DNA of 64,000 nucleotides from positions 928,001 to 992,000 of the forward strand of contig OY759316.1 of assembly GCA_963662275.1 (NCBI GenBank), in the 5' to 3' direction. The DNA comes from Candidatus Cloacimonadales bacterium. GTDB lineage: Bacteria > Cloacimonadota > Cloacimonadia > Cloacimonadales > DAONDQ01. Numbering within the stretch: position 1 is the stretch's first letter; the number at the start of each line of letters is the position of its first letter. This document shows positions 56,025 through 63,344 of the stretch, one piece after another. Below the pieces are notes generated by a model. It was not told the origin of the DNA. It saw only the letters and a list, made by a program, of their open reading frames with translations, and made no database searches. Both the position numbers and the translations under genes were made by a program.

Positions 56025-56741
56025 ATGAAATATATGTTTTTAATGATAGTTCTTTCCTTTTCTTTAGTATTGGCTGCAACAACGATTTATGATATCCAGT
56101 ACACCTCGAATCCAGGTGTCGATAATACCTATCCTTCTCCCTTGGCGAATCAAAACGTTTCGGTGACAGGGATTGTTACCGCAACTGGATTTCATGCTTC
56201 TTCAGGTCCAAAATTCTTCCTATCTGATCCCATGGGCGGGGCATGGCGTAGTATCTTTATCGATGATGCCAGCCATCCGGTACAGGTCGGCGATTTAGTA
56301 ACAGTAGCGGGAACGGTGAAGGAATATTATGGCATGACAGAAATCCGTCAATGTACGGTAATTAATGTGTTAAGCTCAAATAATGCAATTCCCAATCCTC
56401 TCATTCTGACGAGTGGACAACTAGCTTCCGAAGAGGCATATGAAAGCTGCTTTGTGAAAATTCAGGATATTACCTGCACCATTGCTCCAAATTCACAAAA
56501 TGAATTGTATGTGGATGACGGTTCAGGTTCAGCTAAAATTGACGATGGCTTCTTTTCCGGATCAATTCCATTTCCAATTAATTCTGGTATCGGCATCATT
56601 TATTCTTATCTTATGGGAATTGTTGAATATTCTCATGGTACTTTCTGTTTACAGCCGAGAAATTCATTAGATGTACAAAAAAGAGCCCCCGTTCTGAATT
56701 CACATAAGTCCTGGGGTAAAATCAAATCGATATATAAATAA
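56025..56741 (+). CDS. Secreted OB-fold-type protein ending in SWGKIKSIYK
   Basis: Signal peptide; TIYDIQY...SPL..QNVSVTGIVTA, VGDLVTVAGTVKEYYGMTEI, EAYESCFV, LQPRNSLD as in OB modules of extracellular nucleases; GGAGG RBS. Confidence 0.75.
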   Translation: MKYMFLMIVLSFSLVLAATTIYDIQYTSNPGVDNTYPSPLANQNVSVTGIVTATGFHASSGPKFFLSDPMGGAWRSIFIDDASHPVQVGDLVTVAGTVKEYYGMTEIRQCTVINVLSSNNAIPNPLILTSGQLASEEAYESCFVKIQDITCTIAPNSQNELYVDDGSGSAKIDDGFFSGSIPFPINSGIGIIYSYLMGIVEYSHGTFCLQPRNSLDVQKRAPVLNSHKSWGKIKSIYK

Positions 56742-56764
56742 AGTAATATCTGGAGGATAGAAAC

Positions 56765-57181
56765 ATGAAAAAGTTTTTTAAAAGCCTACTAATATTAGGC
56801 GGAACAGCAGCGGCAGGTTACTTAGGGTTTAAAGCCTATAAAAAAGTCAGCTCGATAGTCCGTTTAAGCAAAGCATTACCGGAATTTCTAAAAAATGTAT
56901 ATGGGGAAATTCCAAAGATTCATATCAACATGGCTTTGAACAAAGTGATCATCAAGACCGGTTTCACCCAAGAGATAATAGACAAACATGAAGATATTGA
57001 ATCAACAGTTCGTGAATATGTGGAAGATTTCTTCCCTTCACTTGGAAATAAAAAACTCAGTATTCATGTTTATGTAAAAGGTGAAGAGGATGAAGAGGAT
57101 GAAGACGAATGCTGTTGCTGCTGTGGTGACGATGATGATGAATGTAACATCGACGAAACTGAAGAAGAACCTAAAAAATAA
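56765..57181 (+). CDS. Hypothetical membrane-anchored protein with acidic poly-Cys tail
   Basis: GGAGG RBS, N-terminal hydrophobic helix, tail EEDEEDEDECCCCCGDDDDECNIDETEEE, terminator follows. Confidence 0.75.
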   Translation: MKKFFKSLLILGGTAAAGYLGFKAYKKVSSIVRLSKALPEFLKNVYGEIPKIHINMALNKVIIKTGFTQEIIDKHEDIESTVREYVEDFFPSLGNKKLSIHVYVKGEEDEEDEDECCCCCGDDDDECNIDETEEEPKK

Positions 57182-57202
57182 CAAAATAACTATACAGTCA
57201 TG

Positions 57203-57233
57203 AATAAAGGTCAGCTAATGCTGACCTTTTATT
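57203..57233. terminator. Probably bidirectional intrinsic terminator
   Basis: AAAGGTCAGC-TAAT-GCTGACCTTT between convergent genes. Confidence 0.8.
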
Positions 57234-57386
57234 TATTTTCTTTAGAAGTGTAGACGTCCAACTTGAGCGCCTCTAGGTCATTTCTCAACTCACTCAACTC
57301 AGACTTCCAATTTTGGCTTCTCTTCTCAACCAGTAATAACCAGATGTAGTTAAATTTTTCTATATGCTTTTGTTGAAAGAGTTTAA

Positions 57387-58313
57387 TCAATCATCTATTC
57401 CAATGATATCACATGCTAATCTATTATTTCGAATAATTGAAGCCAGATCATTCATTTGAATGGAACTTGGTGTCTCTGCATTTGAAAGAAGATACTCCCT
57501 GTTCAAAGATTTGTATTTATTTTTACCAAATGCATGATATGGTAGTAACCTGATCTTAGATATTCCTAAACTTTGAGCAAGCTCACAGACAGCCTCAATG
57601 AATTGCGCATTATCATTGACTAAGGGAATAATCGGCAGGCTGAGTTGAATCTTCTCACTTCCAATGGTCTGGACTAACAATTCCAGATTGTTCAGAATTG
57701 GCTGTAACGAACGACCTGTATAATGAAGATGAGTTGCTTCATCCATCAGTTTGATATCAAAATAAACAAAATCAAAGAGTTTGAGAAATGCTTCACGTTT
57801 TGATAAACGAGCCACGTCGAAGTAACCGCAGGTTTCCAATCCCAGTCCCAAGCCTTCATCTTTTATTCGTTCTGCTAAAGCCACTGCAAAATCCAGTTGA
57901 AACAATGCCTCACCTCCGGAGAAAGTGATTCCTCCACAAGAGTTCTGATAATATAGGCGATTCGATAGAATTCTATCTATCACTTGCTCCACACTATATT
58001 TTCTACCGACAATTTGAATGGCACTTTGGGAACAGGCTGTGGCGCATGATTGTGTTGAGCAAATTGCGCATTTACTGTGATCAATTCTGATCTCATCTTC
58101 CAATCGGATTGCCTGTAATCGGCAACTTTTGATACAGTTTCCACATTTGATGCAATGCTCTGTATGATGCATTGGCTCGAAATAGATGCTTTGACTTTCC
58201 GGATTCGAGCACCATTGACAGTTTAAAGGACAGCCCTTGAAAAACAGAACAGTGCGTATTCCCGGACCATCTTGTGTAGCAAAGTCCGAGATATCAAAGA
58301 GATTACCTGTCAT
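57387..58313 (-). CDS. Glycyl-radical enzyme activating enzyme (radical SAM with ferredoxin-like insert)
   Basis: DGPGIRTVLFFKGCPLNCQWCSNPES; extra CIKCGNCIKSC and CAICSTQSCATAC; GGITFSGGE; LLPYH. Confidence 0.95.
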   Translation of the reverse strand: MTGNLFDISDFATQDGPGIRTVLFFKGCPLNCQWCSNPESQSIYFEPMHHTEHCIKCGNCIKSCRLQAIRLEDEIRIDHSKCAICSTQSCATACSQSAIQIVGRKYSVEQVIDRILSNRLYYQNSCGGITFSGGEALFQLDFAVALAERIKDEGLGLGLETCGYFDVARLSKREAFLKLFDFVYFDIKLMDEATHLHYTGRSLQPILNNLELLVQTIGSEKIQLSLPIIPLVNDNAQFIEAVCELAQSLGISKIRLLPYHAFGKNKYKSLNREYLLSNAETPSSIQMNDLASIIRNNRLACDIIGIDD

Positions 58314-60805
58314 AAGCGATGTTCTGTCCGTGAGATAATCTCATTCTGCATAGAAGCACCCAATTCCACAAAGAAGGCACTAAAACCAGCCACTCTCACA
58401 ATGAGATCACGATATTCTTCAGGCTTTTCCTGGGCTCTTCGCAACATTTGGCTATCCACAATGTTAAATTGTATTTGAAAACCTAAAGTATCGAAGTAGG
58501 TCTTGATTAATTGGATTAGCTTTCGAGAACCTGATTTTCCATGAATACTGGAAGGCAAGAACTTCATATTGTGTAAGCCTCCACGTATTTTTGTGTGATC
58601 AATTTTACCCGCAGAAAGCAGCACTGCCAGTGGACCATTGGTATCAGTTCCCGGATAGGGTGAAGTTACCCCATCAGCAAGAGTCTGACCTGCATGTCTG
58701 CCATCGGGTGTTGCACCGCAGGCTTTTCCAAAAGGAGCATGCGTGCTGATAGCCAGCATGGATGGATCATAAGGTTCACCCAAGAAGTTCTTTTGACTGG
58801 ATACGAACTCACAGTAATGATTGAATAATTCTTCATAGATACCATCAGCACTAGGATCATTATTTCCCCATTTGGGTGAGTGTGTTGCCATTTGCAACAG
58901 CTCACCGTAACCTTCCCAATTATTCTTTAGTGCTTCTCTCAATTTATCCATGCTGATCAGTTTTTTCTCATCTACTAAATCCTGGACGGCTGCCAGACTA
59001 TTCACGACATTCACCATTCCTGTACTAAGAGTCGTAGGACTGCCATTAATAATGGCACCACCATCGTCTAATGATTTACCTCGGGCAATACAATCACGGA
59101 TGAGCATGGAGGAATAGATCAGATTGCAGATATTACGATGGGCTGCCATGACGTAATTCCAATATCTCTGCCAGTTACGAATGCTGATTTTCAAGATATT
59201 CAGATAATTGTCTTTTAATTGTGAAGCAGTTTGGGGGATTTCACAAGCTAACATCGATATACCTGAGACCGGATCTGTGCCACCGTTCAGAGCAAGTTCA
59301 AATATTTTTGCATGATTAATAAAACCTGCTTGTACGACCCCATAGCTCATTCCTTCTAAGGTAGGTTCTGTACATCCACCCATGGCTGCATATTTGCGTA
59401 TTGTTGCCAAAGGAAGGTGACTCTTTTCCAGTTCATGCTGCATATAAATCTTAGTATTAAAAAATGCTGGAAAGCCCACGCCAGTCTTAACACATTCTAT
59501 AGCTTTCATGAGGAATGGGTCACTAAGACGATCATCATACCAGATCGAAAGGGTTGGTTGTGTGGTTTGGCAGTTAATTGCAGACTGCAGAATAAGTATC
59601 GACAGTTCGTTGTCAGCCGGATGTCCATTTTCATCCAAACCGCCAAGCATCATGTTCTGATACAGGTTTCCCGAGCCTAATCCTTCCCAGGAAAAGGAAG
59701 CCATATATTCGATCTCGGTCATCTTGATACGTAGAGCCTCCAGCAGTTCCAAGACTTCCTCGGATGTGATCTTGCCTGATTCCATGTCCTTTTTGAAATA
59801 GGGATACATATATCGATCAAAACGTCCGGGTGAATACCCTAACTGCGCGCCTTCTATATGACCAGCGAGATATATGAACCAAAATGCTTGCATGGCTTCT
59901 CGGAAAGAGCGAGGTGGATTTGCTGGTACATGCTCACAGCAATCTGCAATTTGCAGTAATTCGTTTTTGCGGTCTTTATCGGCTTCAGTAGAAGCCATTT
60001 CACGTGCAATTTTAGCATAGTTTTGTGCCCAGGTGATAGTGCCTTGCAGCACCTTGATGCCCGCACGCCAAAAGAAAAGTTTTTCAGCAGATTCATGATC
60101 GGTGATTTCACAATCATCGATCATTGCCTGAGCTTTAGCGATGATGCCATTCAATCCTATTTTCAATGCAGTCTCAAAGTCCAGGACATATCGACCTTCC
60201 GGTGCAGGATCATGAGGGGCAGTGAAAAGACCGATTTTCCAACCCTTTTCGATATAGGAAGCTTCACCAAAAGAATCCTTCCAAACCCTGTCACTCTCAT
60301 CTTGCATACATTTTCCAGACCAGTACTGTGCCATTTCTTTCAAGTGTTTTTTGTCTTCAGGAGTGATGAGAAACTTCTTTCCAAATACTTCATATTTACC
60401 TTCACGAGCAAGTTTGGCACTTAAGTCAATACCTCCTCCTGTACCAATATCAGTGAATTTGTCCTGTGCCTCATGTTCCTCTTTGTTCATTTCTCTCAGC
60501 ACATATTGGCAGGCATAATTTACATAGGGAATGGCACCTCGTACATATCTTGTCTTGCTGCCGACCAATAATTCATTATCCCGAATACTGGGACTGATAT
60601 GAGCTAAGGCATAAGCATGGCAATACGCTCTTCTTTCCAGGGCGTTATATCCATCACTGGTCTGATGAGTACAAGTATAAAGATCCATATACTCAAGATC
60701 AATATGCATAGCGGAGGTCAAATACACTTGGCGTAATAATGATATTCGCTGTTTTGAAGGCTCAGCTTTTATTTCCCTTAGGTCGAAGCTATCTTGTGAA
60801 CTCAT
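58310..60805 (-). CDS. Glycyl radical enzyme resembling the arylacetate decarboxylase (HPAD/IAD/PhdB) clade, substrate unknown
   Basis: Gly loop LIVRVAGFS, Cys loop MGGCTEP, QPTLSIWYDDRLSDPFLMKAIECVKTGVGFPAF, STHAPFG..ATPDGR; AGGAGG RBS before ATG 60805; 4-nt overlap with the activase gene. Confidence 0.9.
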   Translation of the reverse strand: MSSQDSFDLREIKAEPSKQRISLLRQVYLTSAMHIDLEYMDLYTCTHQTSDGYNALERRAYCHAYALAHISPSIRDNELLVGSKTRYVRGAIPYVNYACQYVLREMNKEEHEAQDKFTDIGTGGGIDLSAKLAREGKYEVFGKKFLITPEDKKHLKEMAQYWSGKCMQDESDRVWKDSFGEASYIEKGWKIGLFTAPHDPAPEGRYVLDFETALKIGLNGIIAKAQAMIDDCEITDHESAEKLFFWRAGIKVLQGTITWAQNYAKIAREMASTEADKDRKNELLQIADCCEHVPANPPRSFREAMQAFWFIYLAGHIEGAQLGYSPGRFDRYMYPYFKKDMESGKITSEEVLELLEALRIKMTEIEYMASFSWEGLGSGNLYQNMMLGGLDENGHPADNELSILILQSAINCQTTQPTLSIWYDDRLSDPFLMKAIECVKTGVGFPAFFNTKIYMQHELEKSHLPLATIRKYAAMGGCTEPTLEGMSYGVVQAGFINHAKIFELALNGGTDPVSGISMLACEIPQTASQLKDNYLNILKISIRNWQRYWNYVMAAHRNICNLIYSSMLIRDCIARGKSLDDGGAIINGSPTTLSTGMVNVVNSLAAVQDLVDEKKLISMDKLREALKNNWEGYGELLQMATHSPKWGNNDPSADGIYEELFNHYCEFVSSQKNFLGEPYDPSMLAISTHAPFGKACGATPDGRHAGQTLADGVTSPYPGTDTNGPLAVLLSAGKIDHTKIRGGLHNMKFLPSSIHGKSGSRKLIQLIKTYFDTLGFQIQFNIVDSQMLRRAQEKPEEYRDLIVRVAGFSAFFVELGASMQNEIISRTEHRL

Positions 60806-60996
60806 GGTTCCTCCTGATTCATTTATTAACAAATATTTATACCATCCCCTATGAGGTATGGATCTAATCAAATCTTATGATATTTATTTTCTTTGTGGTA
60901 TAAAACTGATGTCAAGAAATATGAACAAGAAACTTCTTTTTATATTTTGCTTTGAAATCGCGATTTAGAATCAACATCAATTCCAATCTGAAATAT

Positions 60997-62169
60997 TCAC
61001 TCTGAAAAATCATCAGGCCAGAGCATTTCTGGACTACTTGCCCCATTTGCATATCCAAAACAATAGACATTGTAGAGCTTTGTTGCTATCCGATATATTC
61101 TCGGTTTCATTTTGAACAAGAGCATATAATATAGAGCATCTTTGATGGCATTATATCCAGCCTTTAGAGGTGTCATTCCTTCACTCCTTGCTTGAAAGGT
61201 TTCACCTGTGAAAACTTGCTCCCCTACTTGAGCCATATAATGGAACGTCATCTCATAAGCAGCCTGTTCTAATGCCTCTTGCGACCATGATGTTGTGATG
61301 CACCACTGATCAGAGTGTAATTGATTATATCGGGCTTTGATTGGTGAAGTTATAGGGGCGGGCAAGAGAAGTCGTCTTATTTGTCCATCTGGAACGCTTT
61401 TCCATTTGCGCGATACCCGCCATGTCGAAGGTTCTATGGCAATTTTAATTGGGTCAGGAACTTGAATCTGGCTATCTTTGTAAAAAACTCCTCCAAGTTC
61501 AATTCCTCTTTGAAGACGTTCAATATGCCGATCAATTTGTTGCATTATCCGATTGTTAGAAATGACCATTGATTTCATTTCGATGACAGCATGAATATTG
61601 ATCACTTCTTGATCCAGTTCTCTTGAGCGTGATATTATCAACCCATCTGCACCTTTTGCCCATCGATTATTAGATAGCCTGAGTGATTGATCGGATGCTG
61701 CGATTCGACAAGGTTCTCGAATTGTGTCTCCAAAATATAGTTCATATATCTGAGGAATACAGTTTTCACAGGCTAGTTTCTCTGCAAGACTGATACAATT
61801 ACCTATAGATAATAGTTCAGCAAGTTCTCCCTTGAAACGATTCACCATATGGAAGAAGATAAATCTAATACAGTCAGCACATTCTTCAGGTGATAATTTA
61901 TCCTTGCCATTACTGACAAAAGTGTCTGATTCCTCAATATCGCAAAGACCATAAGCAATTAACCTCTTAAAAAGCTGACCACGAGGATGTTCATTAATAT
62001 CGCGTATAGCAGCATCAAGAGAATATCTAAAGATATCCCATGCTTTTTTTCCAGAGACAAGGTGTACTTTCGAATTACCCAAAGCAACCAATATTACTTT
62101 TTCGATAGCTTTAGCTAATGGTAGACTGCCAATAATCTCCGCTATTTGATAAGCTGATGAGCGACTCAT
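60997..62169 (-). CDS. Hypothetical protein with possible PD-(D/E)xK nuclease fold
   Basis: 390-aa ORF with GAGG RBS; FKGELAE...KGADGLII...AVIEMKS resembles motifs I-III. Confidence 0.55.
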   Translation of the reverse strand: MSRSSAYQIAEIIGSLPLAKAIEKVILVALGNSKVHLVSGKKAWDIFRYSLDAAIRDINEHPRGQLFKRLIAYGLCDIEESDTFVSNGKDKLSPEECADCIRFIFFHMVNRFKGELAELLSIGNCISLAEKLACENCIPQIYELYFGDTIREPCRIAASDQSLRLSNNRWAKGADGLIISRSRELDQEVINIHAVIEMKSMVISNNRIMQQIDRHIERLQRGIELGGVFYKDSQIQVPDPIKIAIEPSTWRVSRKWKSVPDGQIRRLLLPAPITSPIKARYNQLHSDQWCITTSWSQEALEQAAYEMTFHYMAQVGEQVFTGETFQARSEGMTPLKAGYNAIKDALYYMLLFKMKPRIYRIATKLYNVYCFGYANGASSPEMLWPDDFSE

Positions 62170-62384
62170 TTATCTTTCCTCATAATTATCATGGTTCGTT
62201 CCTTTCTGTGATCATATTATTTTGAATTGAAAACAATGAGGAATATCTGTCAAATGATTCGTTTATTTCATGACCTTAGAGAAAGCATAATAATGAGACG
62301 CCCATGTTGGACTTCTCTACTTGTATCTTGACATAATATCATCATTTTGCCGATTTATAGAAAACAGCTTTTAATTGGAGCACC

Positions 62385-63344
62385 ATGTCAAAAAACATCA
62401 GATCCGTATTTCTCTTGCTTCTCACTTCCATGATTTGGGGATTTGCCTTTGTAGCTCAGAGAAAAGGAATGGAATCGCTTGATCCAATGACTTTTAATGG
62501 TATTCGATTTGCCTTGGGAGCTGTGTTTGTGGGGTTGATAATAAGGATGAGACCCCCCGTGATTTTGAAGTGTGAAGTTCGAAGTTCGAAGTTCGAACCT
62601 GTGAATTCGAACTTCGCACTTCGCACTTCGAACTTCCGAGGGTTTCCCTGGTTGCCAGGTATTGTACTGTTTATTGCTGCTTCACTTCAACAGGTTGGAA
62701 TTATCTGGACTACTGCTGGGAATGCAGGATTTATCACAGGATTATATGTAGTATTCGTACCAATATTAGGGATTTATCTTGGTCAAAGCTTGAATATGCG
62801 CCATTATCTTGCTGTATTTTTGTCTTGCTTAGGCATTTACCTGATGAGTGTTAAGCAAGGATTCCAGTTTAATCCGGGTGACTTGATTGTTTTATTGAGT
62901 GCTGTCTTTTGGGCATTGCATGTGCATATTATCAGTAAATATACACGAAAAATGGACAGTTTGTATTTAGCTTTTTCTCAATATGCTGTCTGTGCAATTA
63001 TTAGTTTAGTCTGCGGATTGGTAATCATCATGTGGAAGCATCCGCAATCTATCATGAATCTTTCCCTTTTTACCAACATCTTTCATGCTTCCATTCCCAT
63101 TATGTATGGAGGCTTGTTCTCAGTAGGAATTGCTTATACTTTGCAGATTGAAGGACAGAAAAGAATCGAACCCGCTACAGCATCCATCATTCTCTGCCTG
63201 GAAAGTGTTTTTGCTATGTTCGGCGGATGGCTGCTACTTCATGAAGTTGTTTCCTTAAGGATGTTGATTGGTGCTTTATTACTATTTAGTGCCATGATGA
63301 TCAGCACAATATCGCTATCAAATAAGAATTTGCACGAGAACTAA
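62385..63344 (+). CDS. DMT/EamA family transporter carrying an in-frame palindromic insert
   Basis: IWGFAFVAQ, RFALGA, AGNAGFITGLYVVFVP, GDLIVL, IAYTLQI.GQK, LESVFA. Confidence 0.92.
   Translation: MSKNIRSVFLLLLTSMIWGFAFVAQRKGMESLDPMTFNGIRFALGAVFVGLIIRMRPPVILKCEVRSSKFEPVNSNFALRTSNFRGFPWLPGIVLFIAASLQQVGIIWTTAGNAGFITGLYVVFVPILGIYLGQSLNMRHYLAVFLSCLGIYLMSVKQGFQFNPGDLIVLLSAVFWALHVHIISKYTRKMDSLYLAFSQYAVCAIISLVCGLVIIMWKHPQSIMNLSLFTNIFHASIPIMYGGLFSVGIAYTLQIEGQKRIEPATASIILCLESVFAMFGGWLLLHEVVSLRMLIGALLLFSAMMISTISLSNKNLHEN
62567..62636. repeat. Heptamer-built palindrome inside the EamA coding sequence
   Basis: (GAAGTNN)x4-GAA / CCTGTGAA / TTC-(GNACTTC)x4; 31-bp arms. Confidence 0.9.

Follow-up and report, generated by a model that had tools for sequence, protein, structure and literature searches.

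This study concerns a two-gene cassette from Candidatus Cloacimonadales bacterium (assembly GCA_963662275.1) that consists of a gene for an oxygen-sensitive glycyl radical enzyme (GRE) and a gene for a radical-SAM activating enzyme (activase). The window that was analysed is a stretch of 64,000 nucleotides (contig OY759316.1, positions 928,001 to 992,000 of the forward strand), and positions given without a locus number are counted from its first nucleotide. According to the open reading frame (ORF) calls and the Pfam matches, the cassette is an intact two-gene unit on the minus strand, at 57387-60805 (Table 1). The GRE frame is open over 58310-60871, and the gene begins with the ATG at 60805, 4 nt upstream of which lies AGGAGG; the length of 831 aa is identical to that of the database copy P0005. 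At the junction of the two genes (CTT ATG ACA), the stop codon TGA of the GRE and the ATG of the activase share the sequence ATGA. Because the genes overlap by these 4 nt, no gene lies between them, as an earlier interpretation made before any database search (hereafter, the sequence-only reading) had stated.

The GRE carries both domains of its class (PFL-like PF02901, 4e-156; Gly_radical PF01228, 1.3e-29), and all of the motifs quoted in the sequence-only reading occur in its translation. The activase matches Radical_SAM, Fer4_12 and Fer4 in Pfam, and it scores 285 bits with TIGR02494, above the cut-off of 174.35. That reading had drawn attention to two extra cysteine clusters in the activase. 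The eight cysteines are present, but they make up the ferredoxin-like insert that is standard in many GRE activases; an eight-cysteine motif is common among these (PMC6181972). The genome is a single contig of 4.38 Mb that is 99.97% complete; the cassette GRE is its only PFL-type GRE, and a second activase was not detectable in it by tblastn.

Table 1. Features of the cassette and its immediate surroundings. Residue numbers are those of the cassette proteins, and residue counts refer to the 118-member family set described in the text.
Feature	Position	Strand	Basis or conservation
GRE gene, 831 aa plus stop	58310..60805	-	Pfam, start site, homologue lengths
Gly loop RVAGFS with radical Gly807 (fits the pattern RVxG[FYW])	58379..58396	-	Translation, alignment
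Leu593 = OuIAD Leu616 = HPAD Glu637 position	59027..59029	-	Leu in 118/118
Gln492 = OuIAD His514 position (Cys+14)	59330..59332	-	Gln in 118/118
Cys loop GGCTEP, residues 476-481, with thiyl Cys478 and Glu480	59363..59380	-	Invariant in 118/118 family members
Extension 1 (DIGTGGG region), residues ~107-160	60326..60487	-	Alignment blocks
Arg205 = OuIAD Arg226			Invariant in 118
Trp373 = OuIAD Trp392			Invariant in 118
Tyr382 = OuIAD Phe401			Tyr 66, Phe 52
Cys478 = OuIAD Cys500			Invariant in 118
Glu480 = OuIAD Glu502			Invariant in 118
Phe495 = OuIAD Phe517			Invariant in 118
Gly807 = radical Gly			Invariant in 118
GRE-activating radical-SAM enzyme, 308 aa	57387..58313	-	TIGR02494; ATGA junction
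Ferredoxin-like insert, eight Cys (54, 57, 60, 64, 82, 85, 90, 94), two auxiliary 4Fe-4S sites predicted	58032..58154	-	Pfam Fer4, Fer4_7
Radical-SAM motif CPLNCQWC (CX3CX2C at C28/C32/C35)	58209..58232	-	Fer4_12 match
Promoter-like TTGACA-18-GAAAAT, 5′ of the GRE within the 191-nt gap	60886..60915	-	Consensus match only
G+C-rich stem-loop between the convergent activase and the gene at 56765-57181	57206..57229		Consensus match only

The database search yielded more than 100 relatives that are 53-77% identical to the cassette GRE over their full length, and the public names of these family members are inconsistent (formate acetyltransferase, large subunit of 4-hydroxyphenylacetate decarboxylase (HPAD), and indoleacetate decarboxylase (IAD)). 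The best curated model for the cassette GRE is that of IAD (NF033718), with 793 bits against a cut-off of 1100; the HPAD model (NF033715) gives 545 bits against a cut-off of 1150, so that both scores fall below the respective thresholds. Two controls, picked from a search of 1.84 billion representatives, exceed the same thresholds, namely P0125 for IAD (1188 bits) and P0142 for HPAD (1725 bits). By BLASTP, the cassette GRE is 41% identical to the former and 34% identical to the latter, and clustering at high identity with a characterised GRE was not seen. After clustering at 50%, the family is reduced to one representative (66% identical to the cassette GRE), and the next match is 43% identical.

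The phylogeny was based on a tree inferred with LG+C20 from 30 rows and 844 columns; it was rooted with ten PFL2-type GREs and contained no PhdB sequence. The decarboxylase subclass, to which the sequence-only reading had already assigned the protein, is supported at 100/99, and the group of IAD, HPAD-like and HPAD sequences at 100/100. The cassette GRE family groups with the divergent sequence P0128 (100/99), joins the IAD+HPAD group at 100/98, and falls outside the IAD clade and outside the HPAD clade; a quick tree of 47 rows agrees in topology. Because both trees place the family as sister to IAD+HPAD, we regard it as a third lineage beside these two enzymes. The earlier description of the protein as a remodelled member of the HPAD clade therefore does not hold, and IAD is the nearer relative (793 versus 545 bits). 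The end branches within the family measure 0.1-0.3, versus 0.6-1.3 in the neighbouring clades. Four further, unassigned lineages of the decarboxylase subclass (P0127, P0129, P0131 and P0132) branch below IAD, HPAD and the cassette GRE family, and their thiyl loops vary (Cys-x-Glu, Cys-x-Asp and Cys-x-Gly).

According to passages of PMC13232127, three structural marks are proposed for the IAD/HPAD subclass: an N-terminal extension (OuIAD residues 4-41), extension 1, which is an active-site cap (124-169), and extension 2, which is a loop (651-675). The same passages describe AAD and PhdB/PAD as enzymes without these extensions. In contrast, the cassette GRE has extension 1, which can be aligned to the IAD and HPAD representatives at a place where the outgroup GREs show a gap of ~40 residues. 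Its N-terminus begins at residue 28 of the IAD representative and is ~25 residues shorter, and it thus retains the last part of the N-terminal extension only.

The comparison of pocket residues rests on three sequence-alignment methods that agree with one another (MAFFT with 22 sequences, MAFFT with 127 sequences, and BLASTP). HPAD numbering was anchored on the CsdB chain 2y8n, through which P0142 was tied to Cys503, Glu505, His536, Glu637 and Ser344, and the functional residues of OuIAD were taken from passages of a structure preprint and of a 2026 review. Conservation was scored in 118 family members, that is, in the best 120 proteins minus the fragments P0059 and P0083 (<780 aa), with fused proteins cut at residue 900. 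Seven of the eight catalytic or essential residues of OuIAD that could be mapped are kept in 118/118 members (Cys500, Glu502, Arg226, Trp392, Phe401 as Tyr or Phe, Phe517 and Leu616). Passages of the review list Glu502, Arg226, Trp392, Phe401 and Leu616 as essential by mutagenesis. The mapping of OuIAD Leu730/Ile731 is uncertain, and the aligned stretch in the cassette GRE is L684-A-I686. The family also has an invariant signature of its own, which comprises Pro202, Leu322, Gln492, Gly494 and Ala685.

Several of these features are held in common with known systems. The cassette GRE resembles IAD (OsIAD/OuIAD) in its subclass, its Cys-x-Glu loop and its extension 1, and the eight-cysteine insert of the activase is common to both; IAD differs in having His514, the 22-aa extension 2 and the ~25 additional N-terminal residues, and its gene unit has an MFS transporter that the cassette lacks. 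HPAD (HpdBC/CsdBC with HpdA; PDB 2Y8N/2YAJ) also belongs to the subclass, aligns over the full length (query 24-851), and has counterparts of the cassette residues in Cys503/Glu505, in the Arg of the PxGR motif and in extension 1. It differs in Ser344/His536/Glu637, a 17-aa insert in the Cys loop, extension 2 and the gamma subunit, none of which is found in the cassette GRE. The sequence-only reading had treated the lack of a small subunit as a departure. The lack itself was confirmed for the entire 99.97%-complete genome, where a search with the model of the HpdC-type subunit (NF033716) gave 0 matches at E<=1. Such a lack is normal for IAD, AAD and PAD, and the cassette is therefore no exception. 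The match to AAD (PDB 7E7L) covers residues 170-850 only and scores 343 bits, below those to glycerol dehydratase and HPAD, and 7E7L reaches 429 bits with the family profile. PAD has Gln484 two residues after the Cys, according to passages of the 2026 review, and the cassette GRE has Glu480 there. In a search for PhdB-like sequences among distant loci (Acidobacteriota and others), every sequence had Cys-x-Glu and none had Cys-x-Gln.

A locus scan with one genome per prokaryotic species produced 40 loci, the proteins of which are 53-77% identical. The carriers are Cloacimonadota, Ignavibacteria, Kapaibacterium, Brocadiaceae (L005, L006, L024 and L027) and other Planctomycetota, Synergistaceae, WOR-3, Bacteroidota, Acidobacteriota, four Asgard lineages (L004 and L033-L035) and Methanoperedens (L023 and L031). 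One carrier, Anoxybacter fermentans (70% identity), is in culture. In 34 of these loci the activase lies 3′ of the GRE; of the others, four end at or inside the GRE, and two (L018 and L043) have other genes downstream. The 4-nt overlap recurs in eight loci, and the activase is the sole conserved neighbour of the GRE. In the genomes of 30 of the 40 loci, which were searched, no protein exceeded the IAD cut-off, and the family member was the only strong match in each; therefore, no canonical IAD or HPAD accompanies the family member in 30 of 30 carriers. An IS200-type transposase (PF01797) immediately follows the GRE in two loci from Ignavibacteria (L016:8500-10000 and L037:2465-2810), and in L016 it sits between the GRE and the activase. 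The GRE is split into two ORFs in the metagenome-assembled loci L036 and L037 (249+709 aa and 345+393 aa), which may reflect a frameshift, a pseudogene or an error of assembly. The apparent bacterial GRE-activase fusions in Synergistaceae (L013 and L042) were rejected as artefacts of the ORF filter, because the activase part alone matches.

In a further tree, the cassette GRE nests among Cloacimonadota sequences. Among 40 relatives of the source genome there is one orthologue, from another family of the same order, with 72% identity. A genome of the same genus (99% complete) has no orthologue; both flanks are present in it, and neither is followed by the GRE, the activase or the 390-aa gene that lies upstream of the cassette. 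The composition of the cassette GRE is not atypical among the 1699 long ORFs (GC 0.427, 85th percentile; GC3 0.381, 71st percentile), which indicates that any transfer was not recent. An identity of 64-67% is seen for the cassette across bacteria and two phyla of archaea, and the sequences of each phylum mostly form a clade of their own. This combination suggests old transfers that were followed by vertical descent under strong constraint.

The family extends to eukaryotes. Fused GRE-activase proteins of Paratrimastix, Hexamita (four paralogues), Pelomyxa, Rhizomastix and Mastigella (P0069-P0074, P0087, P0101, P0274 and P0305) are family members with 57-62% identity, and each is one polypeptide of ~1100 aa in place of the two overlapping genes of the cassette. 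They form one clade inside the prokaryotic core of the family (97/97 in the LG+C20 tree; SH-aLRT 99) and share its mapped pocket residues; in some of them, the activase part has no ferredoxin-like insert. The HPAD of Mastigamoeba is also said to be fused to its activase. Two of the protist fusions were named 4-hydroxyphenylacetate decarboxylase by their depositors, which is an annotation and not an assay, and the published genome papers on Preaxostyla and Pelomyxa are silent on the enzyme. In a passage of PMC7762791, a Trepomonas protein is called 'most likely' HPAD with reference to work on p-cresol in Mastigamoeba, and a passage of PMC8136499 states that Mastigamoeba makes bactericidal p-cresol with acquired enzymes.

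Taken at the level of the reaction class, the cassette is probably a small-subunit-independent glycyl radical arylacetate decarboxylase. In the reaction that we infer by analogy with IAD and HPAD, the activase's radical-SAM 4Fe-4S cluster (C28/C32/C35) together with SAM would abstract a hydrogen from Gly807, and the Gly807 radical would in turn generate a thiyl radical on Cys478. An arylacetate from the fermentation of aromatic amino acids would bind with its carboxylate beside Cys478, and Glu480 would serve as a proton relay. The hydrophobic pocket for the ring would consist of Arg205 (stacking), Tyr382, Phe495, Leu593, Leu684 and Ile686, with Trp373 gating the channel and Gln492 forming a hydrogen bond with a ring heteroatom. 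CO2 would then leave, and the benzylic-type radical would regain a hydrogen from Cys478 to yield the methyl-arene. The pocket argues for an indole- or phenol-like substrate with one polar contact (Gln492), and the protist literature argues for 4-hydroxyphenylacetate. As putative substrates we rank 4-hydroxyphenylacetate (giving p-cresol) slightly above indole-3-acetate (giving skatole), followed by phenylacetate or another arylacetate. Elsewhere in the genome, ~220 kb from the cassette, lies an indolepyruvate:ferredoxin oxidoreductase pair (G000:C1:764530-767000, locus L088), with an IorB match of 304 bits (cut-off 222) and an adjoining IorA-like gene that scores 548 bits, below the cut-off of 651; judged by these matches, the pair can provide a route from arylpyruvates to arylacetyl-CoA.

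A number of observations weigh against the decarboxylase reading, or against one or the other of its favoured substrates. The IAD equivalog cut-off is failed (793 bits against 1100), and His514 of IAD is replaced by the invariant Gln492 of the family. This position matters in OuIAD, in which H514A lowers kcat 66-fold and raises Km 70-fold (published IAD work) and in which His514 hydrogen-bonds the indole N-H, according to passages of the structure preprint. Extension 2 is absent, as a 22-residue gap in the query and in all family rows versus the loop of P0125, P0130, P0139 and P0142. Ser344, His536 and Glu637 of HPAD correspond to Leu322, Gly494 and Leu593, so that every phenol contact is gone; His536 and Ser344 are presumably substrate contacts in HPAD, and Glu637 is the phenol-end residue in passages of the 2026 review. 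Gly at the HPAD His and Leu at the second Glu had been recognised in the sequence-only reading, and the two MAFFT alignments and BLASTP agree on both. The interpretation of the Leu as remodelling did not survive, because IAD has exactly Leu there (Leu616). The 91 neighbour clusters scanned around the cassette belong to unrelated Pfam families, and among them there is no conserved transporter, aminotransferase or other gene of a pathway. Cys-x-Glu is found in GRE dehydratases as well, and with the family profile the solved dehydratase 1r8w (579 bits) ranks above HPAD 2y8n (518 bits). Full-text searches, the IAD papers and passages of the 2026 review (supplements excluded) yielded no mention of an enzyme of the prokaryotic family and no assayed member. 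We infer that the Mastigamoeba HPAD belongs to the family because three other Archamoebae carry the fused form, and in a passage of PMC8136499 the Mastigamoeba enzymes are said to be 'of Clostridiales origin'.

Within and beside the arylacetate decarboxylase reading, three more specific explanations can be compared. The enzyme may be a p-cresol synthase, that is, a 4-hydroxyphenylacetate decarboxylase that needs neither the gamma subunit nor the phenol contacts Glu637/His536 and that would be the bacterial counterpart of the protist HPAD-activase fusions. We hold this view tentatively. The fusions nest in the family core, share its pocket and bear HPAD names, three Archamoebae carry the fused form, and passages of PMC7762791 and PMC8136499 link the p-cresol of Mastigamoeba to laterally acquired enzymes; moreover, Gln492 could hydrogen-bond the phenol OH. 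However, the names are depositor annotation, the Clostridiales origin given in PMC8136499 points elsewhere, and no general base is found at the phenol end (Leu593, Gly494 and Leu322), where the HPAD mechanism proposed in passages of the 2026 review needs one. The lack of this base argues against an HPAD-type mechanism. It is less likely that the enzyme is a divergent true IAD that makes skatole. IAD is the best curated model and also has no small subunit. Seven of the eight functional residues that could be mapped agree, among them Leu616, Arg226 and Trp392, and the 2026 review reports that substitutions of these three abolish OuIAD activity. The hydrogen bond from the indole N-H, which His514 takes in IAD, could be accepted by the amide oxygen of Gln. 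These similarities are set against the failed cut-off, the Gln in 118/118 members, an identity of 41% to a true IAD, a position as sister to IAD+HPAD and not within IAD, the absence of extension 2, and an N-terminal 'seatbelt' that is ~25 residues shorter.

We give a similarly low weight to the explanation that the enzyme has a substrate (another aryl-, heteroaryl- or alkyl-acetate) that the four known GRE decarboxylases do not use, or that it catalyses a different radical reaction. This is a sharpened form of the sequence-only reading, which had proposed a different, possibly non-phenolic substrate; fused eukaryotic members with an identical pocket, however, bear the name HPAD, which goes back to reported p-cresol production in Mastigamoeba. 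A distinct clade with its own invariant signature would fit this explanation, and so would the extreme conservation over three domains (branches of 0.1-0.3 versus 0.6-1.3), which suggests one fixed and widely useful function, as well as the finding that the family member is the only decarboxylase-type GRE in the 30 carriers searched. Cys-x-Glu is common to eliminases, and the high scores of the family profile on dehydratases point in the same direction; a non-decarboxylase reaction is thus possible. In the hidden Markov model alignment, however, the positions of His164 and Asp447 of glycerol dehydratase (1r8w), which we take to bind the substrate hydroxyls, are occupied by Arg205 and Gln492. 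In addition, the pocket differs little from the IAD pocket, the gene neighbourhood gives no sign of another pathway, and the eukaryotic members are tied to p-cresol in the literature. Uncharacterised radical chemistry, which the sequence-only reading had raised, is possible, and nothing tested here indicates it. The arylacetate decarboxylase reading, in which the enzyme works as IAD and HPAD do, is the one that we prefer as the most economical.

The surroundings of the cassette contain few signals. The promoter scan found 15 sites against a mean of 17.9 in shuffled sequences, a count that is not above the shuffles, and the promoter-like sequence of Table 1 is the best of the 15. The stem-loop downstream of the activase is likely a two-way terminator, judged by its consensus match. 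An exact 14-nt direct repeat, TATTTATTTTCTTT, brackets the cassette at 57230-57243 and 60881-60894, 3651 nt apart; it is A+T-rich and is probably a chance occurrence. The other repeats around the cassette are short ones only. There is no hint of a tRNA or integrase among the ORFs, and an Rfam scan of 56500-62800 gave no match at E<=0.1. Directly upstream of the GRE lies an ORF of 390 aa (60997-62169, minus strand) for which Pfam, NCBIfam and PADLOC give no match. A paralogue is absent from the genome, as is a counterpart at the same place in the same-genus genome; the Atlas gives weak leads towards restriction-endonuclease-like clusters. PADLOC gave no match for the three unnamed neighbours of the cassette. 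The divergent EamA-family transporter beyond this ORF (62385-63344, plus strand) has a Ser/Asn/Phe-rich stretch, residues ~59-84, that does not align with the same-genus orthologue, and the remainder is 67-78% identical. Neither this transporter nor the 390-aa ORF is a conserved partner of the cassette.

According to passages of the 2026 review, four GRE decarboxylases are known, and the reason why their mechanisms seem to differ is called unclear. The cassette GRE family stands between IAD and HPAD in sequence, and it combines an IAD-like pocket with one invariant His-to-Gln change and with the absence of extension 2 and of a small subunit. It might add to these four a further GRE decarboxylase with a mechanism of its own, which would be the main one of anoxic environments, and its two-gene or fused module would have moved as a ready-made unit between bacteria, archaea (Asgard and methane-oxidising) and anaerobic protists; we regard this broader proposal as speculative. 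One version of the proposal has the enzyme form p-cresol in an IAD-type hydrophobic pocket that offers no base to the phenol; the other has it act on an arylacetate that is used by no known GRE. Turnover of 4-hydroxyphenylacetate would be a natural test of the need for the phenol-end glutamate of HPAD, and such p-cresol formation would be at odds with the idea that decarboxylation of this substrate requires a proton-coupled oxidation assisted by Glu637. If indoleacetate proves to be the substrate, skatole would gain additional marker genes. Because a cultured carrier, Anoxybacter fermentans, exists, the question of the substrate is directly testable. Its carriers are free-living anaerobic protists and uncultured anaerobes that abound in digesters, sediments and anammox reactors, and outside guts the family may therefore be a main source of volatiles of the p-cresol or skatole type. 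It is a biochemically uncharted and widespread branch next to the skatole and p-cresol enzymes, and it most likely removes CO2 from an aromatic acid.

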